Source of the DNA: Escherichia phage vB_EcoM_phAPEC6
Sequence record: MK817115.1
Reading direction: 5' to 3' (one strand)
Length of the DNA stretch: 64,000 nucleotides
The position numbers were made by a program, and so were the translations under genes. Numbering within the stretch: position 1 is the first letter of the stretch; each line of letters starts with the position of its first letter. Below, piece after piece: positions 15,341 to 59,602 of this stretch. The notes under the pieces are model-generated. The model saw only the letters and a list, made by a program, of their open reading frames with translations, was not told the DNA's origin and ran no database searches.

Positions 15341-15368
15341 ATCCAGTACTATTAAGTACTGGATTTTT
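15341..15368 (-). promoter_or_regulatory. Hairpin CCAGTACT-ATTAA-GTACTGG in an intergenic gap
   Basis: Perfect inverted repeat built on the CAGTACTG palindrome, between two minus-strand genes. Confidence 0.4.
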
Positions 15369-15369
15369 A

Positions 15370-15741
15370 TTATGACATACGCTTATTATGAATGGAATTA
15401 TGAATGGATTTTAAATAATTATATAATTTTATCAATCCACTACCAGTAGCTACAAACAGTAGTGCTGTTGGTATCATACATCCAAACATGGTTATTAATT
15501 CATGTATTTCCATACCATCACTATTTGGTCCCACATCAAATATAACAACCAAAACAACACCTAAAATGCTTAGACAATAATATCCCATAAAGACCATAAA
15601 AGTGATATATCCGGCACTTGATTTAATATTACATAACATATTATACACTGGATTAATACAGAAGAAGTATAATAACCATACCAGTGTTCCAGTACTGAAC
15701 ATAATAATTGAAATAATGGAAAATATCTCACGGTAACTCAT
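15370..15741 (-). CDS. Small multi-pass membrane protein (paralog family member)
   Basis: 123 aa, mostly hydrophobic; in a tandem run of similar-sized hydrophobic ORFs. Confidence 0.6.
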   Translation of the reverse strand: MSYREIFSIISIIMFSTGTLVWLLYFFCINPVYNMLCNIKSSAGYITFMVFMGYYCLSILGVVLVVIFDVGPNSDGMEIHELITMFGCMIPTALLFVATGSGLIKLYNYLKSIHNSIHNKRMS

Positions 15742-15742
15742 A

Positions 15743-16105
15743 TTATTTCCTCATACCCAAACGTTGGTGGATTTCAGAGATCTTTATATACAATAGTACC
15801 ACAAGGTGCAGTACTAAACAACATATAATTACGGCTAATACCAATGAACATATCATAAGACCGAAGGTTATTGTATTCAAAGAGGATGTGAACAGTCCAA
15901 TTATTAATACAATAAAACCAAAATTGAATACTGTACCCAACACAGTATATGCTGGACTATATCTCTTTTGGATTACATCATATATATTTGATAATGGTCG
16001 CTTATGGAAGTACTTCCCAATGCACACGAATGCATTCAGTGAGAAGATAAATGTATACGCCATTACTAGTAATTGACCAACGAAAGATAATTCTATCCCG
16101 TTCAT
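15743..16105 (-). CDS. Small multi-pass membrane protein (paralog family member)
   Basis: Start set to ATG 16105 (MNGIELSF, GAGG RBS), which abuts the upstream stop; hydrophobic. Confidence 0.55.
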   Translation of the reverse strand: MNGIELSFVGQLLVMAYTFIFSLNAFVCIGKYFHKRPLSNIYDVIQKRYSPAYTVLGTVFNFGFIVLIIGLFTSSLNTITFGLMICSLVLAVIICCLVLHLVVLLYIKISEIHQRLGMRK

Positions 16106-16106
16106 A

Positions 16107-16475
16107 CTAACCTCGTTTACGTTTTTTAATTGTACTGTGCATCTTTTCGAAATAGGGAACCAAAACATATTGAACAGTTTGCCAGATAACCATTAGATTA
16201 TGCACTGCACCACCAAGGATACCAAACACTAGAACAATAATTGCCATAATAGGATCACCGTCTACCATACCCCATTTAAAGATATGTAAAATCCAAGCAA
16301 TGACTAGACAAAATAAACTAAGCCAATACGTAATGAAAAATCCGGCTTGTAATTCATAATCATCAGCAATTTCATCGTATACCGTTTCTAAAAATGATAC
16401 ACAAAAGAATTTACCAATTATAACCACAGTACTAATAAACAGCATAGCAGTTAAGATAATAAGAGCAATTTCCAT
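16107..16475 (-). CDS. Small multi-pass membrane protein (paralog family member)
   Basis: 122 aa hydrophobic with basic C-terminal tail (KKRKRG). Confidence 0.6.
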   Translation of the reverse strand: MEIALIILTAMLFISTVVIIGKFFCVSFLETVYDEIADDYELQAGFFITYWLSLFCLVIAWILHIFKWGMVDGDPIMAIIVLVFGILGGAVHNLMVIWQTVQYVLVPYFEKMHSTIKKRKRG

Positions 16476-16789
16476 TACATCCCTCGTTTACGCTTTTGGT
16501 TGCGTCTAAATTCTGTTAGTCCACGGCTAATCGGCGGCATCAGACTACATAAAAAAGTAACAGTTGTTGGTAGTAACATCAAGTCAATCATTGCAGTGTT
16601 ATCTGGTGGTTCAAAAACCAAAAAATACACACAAGAAACACTAATAATGGTTGATCCGATAAAAGGAATACAAAATTCTTTTATCTGTTTTTCAACATAA
16701 TCAAACATCTTGAGTACAAATAAAAATCCAACCCAACACATAATGAAATAGAATGAATACAACGTGTAAATCAATGTTACGATATCCAT
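16475..16789 (-). CDS. Small multi-pass membrane protein (paralog family member)
   Basis: 104 aa hydrophobic, basic tail (RRNQKRKRGM); start overlaps upstream stop. Confidence 0.6.
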   Translation of the reverse strand: MDIVTLIYTLYSFYFIMCWVGFLFVLKMFDYVEKQIKEFCIPFIGSTIISVSCVYFLVFEPPDNTAMIDLMLLPTTVTFLCSLMPPISRGLTEFRRNQKRKRGM

Positions 16790-17127
16790 TAGTACCTCGC
16801 ATCAGGGACTTTAGCACGTAATTTATGAACGACTGGGAACAACAACAAACTTACATATGCAATAGTTGAACCCCAATAGAATACTAATACAATTGGTTCA
16901 CCATTAGAACGGAAACCTCTACTAATCATTGAGTAGTGAATAATAGGCATAATCATCGCCATACCAAACCATGCGTGTAATTTTAATTGCAGCATGTTAT
17001 CAGCGATGAATACTGAAATTGGTCGTTTAAAGAACCACATCAGAAAGTAGAATCCAGCACTAATAATATAGTACAAAGTACTAACTTTCATATACCACGG
17101 CAGTAAATCAATAAAGTACTCCATCAT
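16789..17127 (-). CDS. Small multi-pass membrane protein (paralog family member)
   Basis: 112 aa hydrophobic; C-terminal KLRAKVPDARY resembles the family tail. Confidence 0.6.
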   Translation of the reverse strand: MMEYFIDLLPWYMKVSTLYYIISAGFYFLMWFFKRPISVFIADNMLQLKLHAWFGMAMIMPIIHYSMISRGFRSNGEPIVLVFYWGSTIAYVSLLLFPVVHKLRAKVPDARY

Positions 17128-57475: not shown

Positions 57476-57654
57476 TATATTTTTTTGTCTCTAACCGCAA
57501 GCTCATAGATGAACCAACGATTTCCATTCTCATCTAGTACATATGATTCGAACTTATATTTGTCTCGTAAAATATCGAAATGACCATCAATAAATCCATT
57601 TCCAAACTGGTCATAACGTTTTTTCATCATTGCCATCCATTCTTCATGTGTCAT
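57476..57654 (-). pseudogene. MTHEEW-family copy 6 with a 1-nt frame disruption
   Basis: MTHEEWMAMMKKRYDQFG, then homology to copy 5 (GFIDGHFDILRDKYKFESYVLDENGNRWFIYELAVRDKK) continues only in a shifted frame. Confidence 0.45.
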
Positions 57655-57836
57655 CTCTTAATATCCATAACGGCTATACTAAAATATGTACCAAAATCAT
57701 CACAATTGATAATGTTGTTATAGTACTCAATTGGGTTACGCAATGATATATACAATTCAAGCTTAAAATAGTATATATCTGCTGCATTTATATTATAGTG
57801 TAGATTAAACCACTCATCAAATGTCTTAGGCTGCAT
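57651..57836 (-). CDS. Hypothetical small protein
   Basis: 61-aa ORF; stop overlaps the start of the following MTHEEW copy. Confidence 0.45.
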   Translation of the reverse strand: MQPKTFDEWFNLHYNINAADIYYFKLELYISLRNPIEYYNNIINCDDFGTYFSIAVMDIKR

Positions 57837-58230
57837 TATATTTATCTTTATAAAAATCCATGATTTTAGTCAACAGTACTGCAATCGTATAATCTAAATC
57901 AGGATAAAGTAAATTGTACTGAAATTCTTCCTCAACACTATAGTTAGTGGTACAGTACTGGTAATCTTTATAACCTATTGAAAAATAATTCGGATACAAT
58001 GTACAACGAAAGCGATAAGCTTCATCTGTCATATAATCATTGTATTCAACACAGAAGTATAGTGATTTTGAATTTAATTCGATAAGCTCCACGAAACCAT
58101 CTGGTAATGAATGATTATAAATGGTATTATCATTATTAAACCATTCATAATATTTTTCTAAAAAATCACTAATAGATACATCAAGACTTTGTATAGGTGG
58201 AGTTATGATAATTTGAACTTCGTTATTCAT
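57826..58230 (-). CDS. Hypothetical acidic protein
   Basis: 134-aa ORF. Confidence 0.55.
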   Translation of the reverse strand: MNNEVQIIITPPIQSLDVSISDFLEKYYEWFNNDNTIYNHSLPDGFVELIELNSKSLYFCVEYNDYMTDEAYRFRCTLYPNYFSIGYKDYQYCTTNYSVEEEFQYNLLYPDLDYTIAVLLTKIMDFYKDKYNAA

Positions 58231-58715
58231 TTTCTCCCCTTATTATATTTTACATATGGGTTATCATAAAGATCATAACTTTTCTGAGCACGTTCTTTTT
58301 TGCGTTCATACATAATTCTATCATACTCCTTCGCTTTCCCATTTGCTTCATTATACAGTTTTAAAATTAGCAAAAATGTATCAAGGTCAGGGTAGTTTGC
58401 TGGATTGATAGTACTTAACATAAATCGTTCTTCTTCAGTTCTAGCAACATCAAACTCATACTTAATAGTTTTATACCCACTCCATTTATATGTGTGTATT
58501 ACTTTGTTAGTAAGTACATTATATTCAACGAAATCAGTACTACCATCAAGTACACGAGTAATCTTAATAGATGTACCAATGACAATCTGTACAGAACTCA
58601 TTTCTGAAGTTTTAAAGTAATAAATGTTATTACGGCGAAGATTAACTTCTCGATCTCCAATGCGAACATGCTTAATAACTTCCATTAATGGTTCTGGTAC
58701 ACCACGAATTGGCAT
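58227..58715 (-). CDS. Hypothetical protein
   Basis: Start set to ATG 58715 (AAAGGAG RBS; MPIRGVPEPL...). Confidence 0.55.
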   Translation of the reverse strand: MPIRGVPEPLMEVIKHVRIGDREVNLRRNNIYYFKTSEMSSVQIVIGTSIKITRVLDGSTDFVEYNVLTNKVIHTYKWSGYKTIKYEFDVARTEEERFMLSTINPANYPDLDTFLLILKLYNEANGKAKEYDRIMYERKKERAQKSYDLYDNPYVKYNKGRK

Positions 58716-58716
58716 G

Positions 58717-58953
58717 TTAATGCTCCTTTTTAATTCTATACATTTTAACAGCACTGGTTTCCCAAAAGTCACCATCTAAGTTGCTGAATTTATATATAGT
58801 TTCGAGATTTTCACCATCAAACGAAAACAACACAACATCTTCTTGTACAGTGCCGTTATGTAACATGATATCATAAACTTCATTTCTTACAAATAATTCT
58901 TTGGCCTTAGAAATATCAAAATCAATAAATTTCATATATCCTCCTATTATCAT
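58717..58953 (-). CDS. Hypothetical small protein
   Basis: 78-aa ORF. Confidence 0.5.
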   Translation of the reverse strand: MIIGGYMKFIDFDISKAKELFVRNEVYDIMLHNGTVQEDVVLFSFDGENLETIYKFSNLDGDFWETSAVKMYRIKKEH

Positions 58954-58983
58954 TATTTGTATTATATCAGAGTTTCATTGCAT

Positions 58984-59376
58984 CTACCAGCATGTTTTCA
59001 TAACTTCTGTGATGTGATTCATTTTATCTTTAAGTACGTAAGGGATGCAAATTTCACCTGGGCTTAACGTTGTGTTCTTTTGAAACTCATCTTCTTCGGA
59101 ATCAGCCAGGTAAAATGGGTGTGTCACAAAGGTATCATCAACTGGACGATTATGTGGTTTCATTAATGCATCATGATTGACAAAATAATAAGCATCAATA
59201 TCAGGACGGAAATACAAACAATCAACCTTAATGCACGGGTGTAACCATAAGGACAAAGAATATGTTATTTGGTTACCAATTTGTCTTGGGCCTGATGCAA
59301 TTGTATTGATGTTATTTTTATCTTGTACCATTTCATAAATGAAATCTATCATTTCGTGTAGTTCTGATTCAGTCAT
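58984..59376 (-). CDS. Hypothetical protein
   Basis: 130-aa ORF. Confidence 0.55.
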   Translation of the reverse strand: MTESELHEMIDFIYEMVQDKNNINTIASGPRQIGNQITYSLSLWLHPCIKVDCLYFRPDIDAYYFVNHDALMKPHNRPVDDTFVTHPFYLADSEEDEFQKNTTLSPGEICIPYVLKDKMNHITEVMKTCW

Positions 59377-59602
59377 TTTATTTCCTTAAAAAAATACCCA
59401 GTCAAGTACTGGGTATTTACAAAGTAACGTTTAATCAGATTTCTTTTCGTAATCTGTAAAAACAGTCAGGATTGTTGCACATAGTGAATCAACTACTGAT
59501 GCACGTGTGTTATCAAGGTCTTTAGCTAGTGCTTGAATCTCTTGAAGTTTTACTACTAAGTCGATTTTTTGATTACTCATTACTTCTCCTATTGGATGTT
59601 TT

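Follow-up and report, generated by a model that had tools for sequence, protein, structure and literature searches.

AGTACT, a selection-maintained and highly iterated palindrome of RaK2-like jumbo phages, and possibly the recognition site of a phage enzyme

The 8-bp palindrome CAGTACTG recurs in promoter spacers and hairpin stems of Escherichia phage vB_EcoM_phAPEC6 (MK817115.1), of which a stretch of 64,000 nucleotides (here called the window) was analysed. By counting the octamer and its core, the hexamer AGTACT, in the window and in related phages, we found that the RaK2-like jumbo phages carry AGTACT (with a weak extension to cAGTACTg) throughout their genomes, as a highly iterated palindrome that is maintained by selection, and that the copies in promoter spacers and hairpins are a minority residing in sequence-permissive slots. 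Selection at the DNA level holds the word at ~2.5-2.8 copies per kb wherever the encoded protein or the structure of the RNA leaves room for it. Regarding its function, the reading that we tentatively prefer is that AGTACT may be the recognition, and probably the modification, site of a phage enzyme, in which case it would serve as a dense mark of self.

The octamer is present 37 times in the window, whereas shuffled sequences contain it 0.77 times on average (~0.8 expected) and three times at most, which bears out the statement of a first-pass annotation that the palindrome is embedded in promoter spacers and hairpin stems. The hexamer is found 180 times versus 19.6 expected (shuffle mean 19.25, maximum 33) and ranks first among all hexamers of the window when these are ordered by z-score, i.e. 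it is the most over-represented one; the excess is ~9-fold for the hexamer and ~47-fold for the octamer. Most hexamers (142 of 180, or 79%) lie wholly within open reading frames (ORFs), as do ~27 of the 37 octamers (estimated from the flank counts), and the remaining 38 are non-coding, which yields comparable densities of 2.7 sites per kb in coding and 3.4 per kb in non-coding DNA. All three reading frames are occupied: the word encodes Ser-Thr in 65 cases (frame 0), is read as xAG-TAC-Txx in 34 (frame 1) and as xxA-GTA-CTx in 43 (frame 2). The spacing of the sites is near-Poisson (coefficient of variation 0.87) and close pairs are not in excess, which rules out a clustered or periodic local arrangement. 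As many as 43 sites precede position 15341, where the first-pass annotation had let the range of the motif begin, and the copies in promoter spacers and terminator stems together make up only about 20 of the 180. The largest gap between sites, statistically non-significant taken alone, coincides with a minus-strand ORF (18713-20599) for a 627-aa AAA plus HNH endonuclease (phrog_681/559), which contains one AGTACT in 1.9 kb, has a shorter counterpart in phage G17 and may be a recently acquired mobile endonuclease.

In principle, such an excess could be a by-product of codon or dipeptide usage, of peptide repeats or of duplicated elements: AGT, ACT, GTA and TAC are all among the favoured codons, duplicated families make up the array terminators and three of the promoters described below, and clustered AGTACT in other viral contigs represents Ser-Thr tandem repeats. 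However, shuffling of synonymous codons within each gene, which preserves the gene's codon usage, produced only 45±5.7 coding sites versus the 142 observed, and every frame as well as the intergenic regions is enriched, with dispersed sites. A codon or dipeptide artefact is refuted by these shuffles and by the frame distribution, and we attach next to no probability to this explanation as a whole. Positions at which the peptide is compatible with the word are realised as AGTACT in 36-50% of the cases, versus the 7-15% expected from codon usage. Moreover, the dipeptides ST (144 versus 84 expected) and VL (157 versus 102) are themselves enriched, and therefore the DNA word appears to have shaped protein sequence.

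The sites are conserved beyond their surroundings. Between the window and G17, 3.3% of the aligned positions are substituted, versus 1.35% within AGTACT sites and 4.8% in their 6-bp flanks, and nine sites have been lost where random hexamers suffer 19.9±4.1 losses (P=0.004); another 14 sites occur in G17 alone. At a larger distance, in 18 orthologous structural and metabolic genes with 63% nucleotide identity, 20-27% of the AGTACT sites are retained in position between genera, versus 11% of all hexamers, and within a genus (GAP32 versus CBB) the retention amounts to 66-71% versus 38%. AGTACT sites are thus under purifying selection and yet turn over, and the property that is conserved is their density.

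The window (compared over positions 22000-30000) is 99.7% identical to Escherichia phage BAU.Micro_ELP-22 and 96-99% identical to SP27, slurp01, G17, Sharanji, 121Q and PBECO4, which are Asteriusvirus jumbo phages (the 121Q/PBECO4/G17 group), RaK2-like and 350-370 kb in size. To cover the clade, separate samples of 28-50 kb were taken from Asteriusvirus, Alcyoneusvirus, Mimasvirus, Eneladusvirus, Xanthomonas phage XaC1 and an Erwinia phage; when pooled with the window (375 kb in all) these contain 945 copies of AGTACT versus 107 expected. The excess is found in each of the samples, for instance in the structural region of G17 (91 versus 16 expected), the replication and early regions of RaK2 (114 versus 11 and 114 versus 9, respectively), GAP32 (114 versus 14), CBB (112 versus 16), Erwinia phage pEa_SNUABM_49 (104 versus 11) and 27.7 kb of XaC1 (116 versus 11). 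The equal enrichment in XaC1 rules out a restriction to phages of Enterobacterales hosts. No excess was seen in the samples of the outgroup phages PA5oct (3 versus 14 expected) and Atu_ph07 (3 versus 7), of T4 (7 versus 9) and of 100 kb of E. coli K-12 (6 versus 9), and the word is ~47 times denser in the phage DNA than in E. coli DNA. A scan of IMG/VR for three AGTACT sites within at most 78 bp returned at least 120 loci; among the matches listed, dispersed enrichment was found solely in RaK2-like fragments, and the remaining ones, which might have pointed to other viral lineages with a dispersed excess, were Ser-Thr tandem repeats. The literature library that was searched yielded no account of the AGTACT excess, nor of the GCGC void described below, and the genome papers of CBB, RaK2, Sharanji and PA5oct are silent on both.

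With respect to its shape, the word is remarkably context-free. In a symmetrised matrix of the 945 sites pooled from eight loci, the information outside the hexamer is confined to ±1 (at -1, C is found in 38% and G in 8% of the sites, against a background of 17%), with essentially none beyond, and hence the weak extension cAGTACTg. The flanks are symmetric and the word is a perfect palindrome; when the sites are oriented by coding strand both flanks are enriched, which argues that it is duplex DNA, and not RNA, that is read. One-mismatch variants mostly occur at 1-3.9 times expectation, versus ~9 times for the exact word, with AGGACT/AGTCCT as the sole pair below expectation. Other palindromes of the form NGTACN are not enriched (GGTACC 0 versus 7 expected, CGTACG 0 versus 3.6, TGTACA 52 versus 38). 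AGTACT thereby has the form of the target of a type II enzyme or orphan methyltransferase (i.e. a sharp 4-8-bp palindrome without extended context), and in this respect its specificity would resemble that of a Type II enzyme more closely than that of a repressor. It is in fact identical to, and as sharp as, a ScaI-type Type II site (AGT^ACT), but such sites are normally avoided by phages, whereas these phages have it in strong excess, and an enzyme of the ScaI type was not identified.

The enrichment stands out against the purging of other words. GCGC is absent from the clade (0 versus 214 expected in the 375 kb of the window and the sampled loci L002-L005 and L011-L013, which represent five genera and XaC1; 0 versus 29 in the window itself), whereas it is present at normal frequency in PA5oct (47 versus 49 expected), T4 (64 versus 69) and Atu_ph07 (76 versus 75). 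This void suggests a lethal, possibly phage-encoded nuclease specific for GCGC. Many GC-containing 6-bp palindromes have no copy in the window either (CCATGG, TGGCCA, GGTACC, GCATGC, CAGCTG, CTGCAG, GGATCC and GTCGAC), and ACATGT and TGATCA remain below half of their expectation, which is a broad avoidance of restriction sites. The GCGC void and the missing palindromes therefore imply a strong pressure from sequence-specific nucleases on the phage DNA, which makes a lone, strongly enriched palindrome all the more striking. We also noted that, in the pooled clade, TAAATA is depleted (279 versus 750 expected), which fits the avoidance of spurious late promoters of the T4 type (TATAAATA), and that GACATC (19 versus 158 expected) and GTCTC are depleted too.

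To relate the motif to transcription signals, 26 sigma-70-like promoters on the minus strand were collected with the pattern TTGAC-N15-19-TAnAnT. Seven of these carry the motif at the -10 element or overlapping the -35 element (Table 1) and the other 19 do not. AGTACTG directly abuts the -10 in four promoters and is one base off in two, where ~0.04 would be expected, and the positional excess beside the -10 is real. The motif-bearing form reads TTGAC[AT]-N9-AGTACTG-(A)-TA[TA]AAT. All five promoters that the first-pass annotation had listed exist (-35 starts at 23658, 38321, 54839, 55299 and 55708, all on the minus strand, with a spacer of N9-AGTACTG), and two others had been missed, at 34009 and, with the octamer over the -35, at 37973. 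One of the checks that it had proposed, namely a count of observed versus expected copies with their position relative to promoters, yielded both a large excess and an enrichment beside the -10. The promoters at 54839, 55299 and 55708 are duplicates with one and the same spacer, whereas the spacers of the others differ around a constant AGTACTG; in RaK2, one promoter in front of a tRNA (L013:25133) has the same architecture as the one at 38321. The claim that the palindrome forms the stems of the array terminators holds as well: within 1-16 kb at least ten intrinsic terminators are built on GCCAGTAC-loop-GTACTGGC, and the hairpins at 15341-15364 and ~59394-59416 also contain the motif. Promoter spacers are free in sequence and terminator stems are necessarily palindromic, and the motif has come to occupy both as permissive slots.

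Table 1. Position of the AGTACT field and of the promoters and hairpins of the window that carry the motif
Feature	Position	Strand	Remarks
AGTACT field	1..64000	.	180 sites, 37 as CAGTACTG, ~1 per 355 bp
Terminator hairpin GCCAGTACTTGATACTGGC + T-run	1152..1170	plus	after RCC1-like paralogue
Terminator hairpin GCCAGTACTTGATGCTGGC	2369..2387	plus	
Terminator hairpin ATGCCAGTACTTGATACTGGCAT	5997..6019	plus	
Terminator hairpin GCCAGTACAAAGTACTGGC	7261..7279	plus	
Terminator hairpin AGGCCAGTACTTTGTACTGGCTT	8065..8087	plus	
Terminator hairpin GCCAGTACTCAAGTACTGGC	9290..9309	plus	two AGTACT, one per arm
Terminator hairpin AATGCCAGTACTTGATACTGGCATT	10572..10596	plus	
Terminator hairpin GCCAGTACTCGATACTGGC	12954..12972	plus	
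Hairpin ATCCAGTACTATTAAGTACTGGAT	15341..15364	plus	end of minus-strand ORF 14666-15328, gene-orientation switch; two AGTACT
Promoter TTGACA-N9-AGTACTG-TATAAT	23631..23658	minus	16-bp spacer, motif abuts -10
Promoter TTGACA-aacgttcgt-AGTACTG-TATAAT	33982..34009	minus	absent from the first-pass list
Promoter with CAGTACTG (37962-37969) over last two -35 bases (TTGACAGTACTG)	37945..37973	minus	
Promoter TTGACA-gaagatatc-AGTACTG-TATAAT	38294..38321	minus	followed by conserved gtttatatcaa
Promoter TTGACT-aaatagttc-AGTACTGA-TAAAAT	54811..54839	minus	upstream of tRNA-Ser/Met/Asn cluster
Promoter TTGACT-aaatagttc-AGTACTGA-TATAAT	55271..55299	minus	spacer identical to that of 54839
Promoter TTGACT-aaatagttc-AGTACTG-TATAAT	55681..55708	minus	spacer family of 54839/55299
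Hairpin ATACCCAGT-caagt-ACTGGGTAT, then minus-strand T-run	59394..59416	minus	AGTACT at 59405; read directly

From the placement in the spacer, the first-pass annotation had derived three options, i.e. an operator for a phage regulator, a recognition or modification site, or a restriction-site-like sequence that is deliberately retained or avoided; its interpretation holds in part. That CAGTACTG would be the operator through which a phage repressor turns off the early promoters, the intragenic copies being incidental, agrees with the overlap between site and core promoter in seven of the 26 cases, with the variation of the spacers around a constant AGTACTG and with the similar promoter in RaK2. 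However, the sites are not concentrated in regulatory regions: 79% are coding, at a density close to the non-coding one, in three frames and with near-Poisson spacing, and the coding sites are themselves under selection. Operator-like arrays and flanking information are lacking, 19 of the promoters do without the site, and no DNA-binding regulator was recognised by Pfam among the 109 ORFs of the window. An operator is thus not supported as the main role, and we consider the repressor scenario improbable. A recognition or modification site that is deliberately retained, on the other hand, is consistent with all results: AGTACT is sharp and kept by purifying selection, although the genome purges other palindromes of 6 bp. 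Where the site adjoins the -10 or runs into the -35, which is the case in few promoters, a secondary regulatory effect is plausible; occupancy or modification at these positions could, as a by-effect, modulate a small subset of early and tRNA promoters.

The mechanism that we propose is that a phage protein particular to the clade would read AGTACT in double-stranded form, with a specificity like that of a Type II enzyme, and that this protein is most likely a DNA-modifying enzyme. The modification would provide the phage DNA with a mark that is about as dense as a 4-bp site, and far denser than in E. coli, and that could set the DNA of the phage, or the state of its replication, apart from that of the host. 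A candidate for the reader is an orphan, small N6-adenine methyltransferase of the Dam family (PF05869; Sharanji gp542, 121Q gp417, RaK2 gp447), which occurs in each clade genus represented among the matches listed; its holders comprise Asteriusvirus, RaK2/K64-1, Munch/7t3, XaC1/XbC2, Yersinia phages fHe-Yen9-03 and fHe-Yen9-04 and Erwinia phages. The gene usually adjoins a cytidylyltransferase-like gene, and the two could form a DNA-modification module; in Sharanji the pair is located at L015:39789-40837 and it is syntenic in 121Q, RaK2, PBECO4 and Munch. The PF05869 methyltransferase is the sole candidate reader of AGTACT that can be named. The clade also has a C5 methyltransferase (RaK2 ORF194, L014:16709-17602), the Asteriusvirus orthologue of which is located ~3-4 kb past the right end of the window (64000) and the closest solved relatives of which are the catalytic domains of the eukaryotic DNMT3A/3B (E=2e-22, full length). 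The sole modification reported for RaK2 is m5CpG, in addition to a resistance to methylation-sensitive enzymes (PMC3622015). The DNMT3-like enzyme fits this m5CpG, so that its target is probably CpG, and since AGTACT does not contain CpG it was rejected as the reader of the palindrome.

Several points weigh against a phage modification enzyme as the reader. The only reported modification of RaK2 suits the C5 methyltransferase and not AGTACT, and the reader is at candidate level. Characterised PF05869 members (those of T1 and VT2 and HP1 Dam) methylate GATC. The outgroups, too, may have a PF05869 methyltransferase, of which the PA5oct paper simply makes no mention. In the 109 ORFs of the window, to which the screen was confined, Pfam recognised only RCC1, DenV-like glycosylase, sigma-70 and AAA domains, and neither a methyltransferase nor a DNA-binding regulator; with PHROGs the ten largest ORFs of the window were assigned to structural proteins and HNH endonucleases and, here too, no regulator or methyltransferase was found. 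Furthermore, being the target of a methyltransferase leaves by itself the selection for a high density unexplained, and the GCGC void suggests that the discrimination between self and non-self may already run another way. The latter void can also be combined with the palindrome into a two-word identity code, in which AGTACT would be the tag of self that is read or modified by a phage enzyme, GCGC would be the target of a phage nuclease that destroys host DNA, and the tag would couple a subset of the early and tRNA promoters to the state of modification or replication; we regard this more elaborate scheme as unlikely.

Alternatively, the tag of self might be read by a protein that does not modify it, i.e. 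a dimeric binder, abundant in the cell, by which the phage DNA is coated or condensed, or it might act in the manner of Chi and, whichever side it is approached from, attenuate a helicase-nuclease of phage or host, thereby shielding the phage DNA while host DNA is destroyed. This possibility, which we consider doubtful, agrees with the ~47-fold contrast in density with E. coli, with a selection that apparently acts on density (given the turnover and the near-Poisson spacing), with the fact that a single palindromic site serves both strands and with the clade-wide absence of GCGC, which shows that these genomes have been shaped by sequence-based discrimination. In addition, the cell becomes filled with phage DNA without the formation of a phage nucleus (PMC11895373). 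A binder would nevertheless have to be very abundant to occupy ~1000 sites per genome in many genome copies, a 6-bp site without flanking information is atypical of helix-turn-helix dimers, known Chi sites are asymmetric, and no candidate protein was found. The excess might also reflect a neutral molecular drive, in which methylation-linked biased mismatch repair, or else gene conversion, would generate AGTACT and bring it back after loss; such a drive has been modelled by Elhai for HIP1, the highly iterated palindrome of cyanobacteria (PMC4390886). The phages indeed possess orphan methyltransferases. T4-like phages, moreover, recombine heavily. A drive should drain the one-mismatch neighbours, but these are not depleted (the deamination product AGTATT/AATACT is present at 1.0-1.6 times expectation), by which repair of the very-short-patch (VSP) type was rejected, and the sites are conserved and not merely replenished, an argument that has likewise been made for selection on HIP1 (PMC5861425). 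A Vsr-like gene was not noticed, although no systematic search for one was made, and on the whole we rate a neutral drive as quite unlikely.

Of a different kind is the proposal that AGTACT is the cleavage site of a symmetric DNA enzyme, either a phage type IIA topoisomerase that cuts A^GTAC^T with a 4-nt stagger or a site-specific nickase, by which the topology or packaging of a 350-kb genome would be managed. Its dyad symmetry and G...C core match the cleavage geometry of type IIA enzymes, the strong gyrase site of Mu is a precedent for a topoisomerase site borne by a phage, and the genomes encode topoisomerase subunits of the gp39/gp52 type and many HNH endonucleases. Still, a topoisomerase of this kind is also present in T4 and PA5oct, which show no excess, topoisomerase preferences are degenerate where AGTACT is sharp, and a nickase that cuts both strands of a palindrome makes double-strand breaks, so that the odds of this proposal, too, are slim. 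Finally, the word might be bound by a host protein, such as TrpR (half-site GTACT) or SlmA, whose binding sequence GTGAGTACTCAC has the same central hexamer AGTACT (PMC3020112) and could explain the filamentation observed in Sharanji-infected cells (PMC11895373). The requirements of SlmA, however, are G1, T2, a purine in third place, A4 and G5 (PMC3020112), and these outer positions are absent or disfavoured at the phage sites, which favour C and disfavour G at -1 and have no GT at -3/-2. Matches to the extended 12-bp sequence GTRAGYRCTYAC with at most two mismatches are at chance level (23 versus 20.7), and the Xanthomonas phage XaC1 shares the excess. SlmA is thereby largely refuted, and a host protein in general is very improbable.

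The closest analogue among known systems is HIP1 (GCGATCGC; the name stands for Highly Iterated Palindrome 1) of the cyanobacteria (PMC4390886, PMC5861425), for which a periodicity of 10-90 kb has been reported. Like HIP1, AGTACT is a short perfect palindrome that is hyper-abundant throughout the genome (an order-of-magnitude excess, at roughly one copy per gene), that is found in all reading frames as well as between genes, that is conserved beyond background, so that its excess is maintained by selection, and that combines a sharp inner hexamer with looser outer bases; in both cases the genomes encode orphan DNA methyltransferases. The differences are that AGTACT is AT-rich and GCGATCGC GC-rich, that it belongs to a clade of lytic jumbo phages and not to a cellular chromosome, that its excess (~9-fold for the hexamer, ~47-fold for the octamer) compares with 15-300-fold for HIP1, and that its cognate methyltransferase would be a candidate only (PF05869, by family assignment). 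AGTACT is therefore an analogue and, as sequence and host domain differ, not a strict member of the HIP1 type.

In the case of Dam, the palindromic methylation site GATC occurs about once per 250-350 bp as a genome-wide epigenetic mark, and occasional copies in promoters render these sensitive to methylation (e.g. IS10 and P1 cre). The density of AGTACT is similar and the phages carry a Dam-family methyltransferase (PF05869), but GATC, a 4-mer, attains its density by chance whereas AGTACT needed its ~9-fold enrichment; the methylation of AGTACT, moreover, is putative, and GATC itself is under-represented in these phages. Chi (GCTGGTGG) and the uptake sequences USS/DUS are short words that have reached a high density via selection or drive and that mark the own DNA, and AGTACT is, like Chi, an over-represented word with a density under selection. 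Inverted pairs of AGTACT form the stems of the array terminators, as pairs of DUS often do. Yet Chi and USS/DUS are asymmetric, orientation-dependent and read by RecBCD or the uptake apparatus, respectively, whereas AGTACT is palindromic and shows no strand skew of the Chi type, and in a lytic phage genome no uptake process applies. The Chi octamer of E. coli and its complement are present five times in the window versus ~0.5 expected, which may only reflect Gly-rich runs of GGTGGT codons.

Apart from the motif, the window is composed of a plus-strand array of RCC1-like genes (1-14.2 kb) and, for the rest, of a dense minus-strand block of small early genes with seven tRNA genes, a T7-type protein kinase, a DenV-like glycosylase and an RpoD-like sigma factor (40707-41669). 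The array (3-14189) encodes ~12 RCC1-like beta-propeller paralogues with a conserved N-terminus (MLPFGRMVKYGN...), most of them followed by a GCCAGTAC...GTACTGGC terminator, and similar genes are located at the genome end of XaC1; the repeated word AAGTACGG is merely the conserved N-terminus of these paralogues. Fused terminator-promoter modules (GGGTTGACTTCGGTCAGCCCTTTTTGCTATAAT), in which the -35 hexamer lies within the terminator stem and the T-run acts as spacer, occur on the minus strand at ~18650-18706, 20830-20887 and 26330-26387, with similar ones at 21809, 28811 and 32237 and one copy in RaK2 (L013:39876). ARAGORN predicted a tRNA-Ser (54709-54800, minus strand) with the unusual anticodon ACT, which would read AGU; AGT constitutes 33% of the Ser codons of the window, in part because AGT-ACT encodes Ser-Thr within the palindrome.

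Hyper-abundant short palindromes under selection are known mainly from cyanobacteria, where the function of HIP1 has been debated for ~30 years, and AGTACT represents a new case. Its signal resides in a clade of culturable lytic coliphages (121Q, PBECO4, G17, Sharanji, RaK2), which makes for a tractable test system. In practical terms, the AGTACT excess together with zero GCGC is a sharp signature by which metagenome fragments of the clade can be recognised, and the cloning and engineering of these phages have to reckon with how dense their ScaI sites are. If the reader is indeed a modification enzyme or a binder of self-DNA, it would show how jumbo phages that do not form a nucleus mark or organise their DNA; and if the two-word code were true, a phage with unmodified bases would distinguish its 350-kb genome from the chromosome of its host with neither hypermodified bases nor a nucleus-like compartment.

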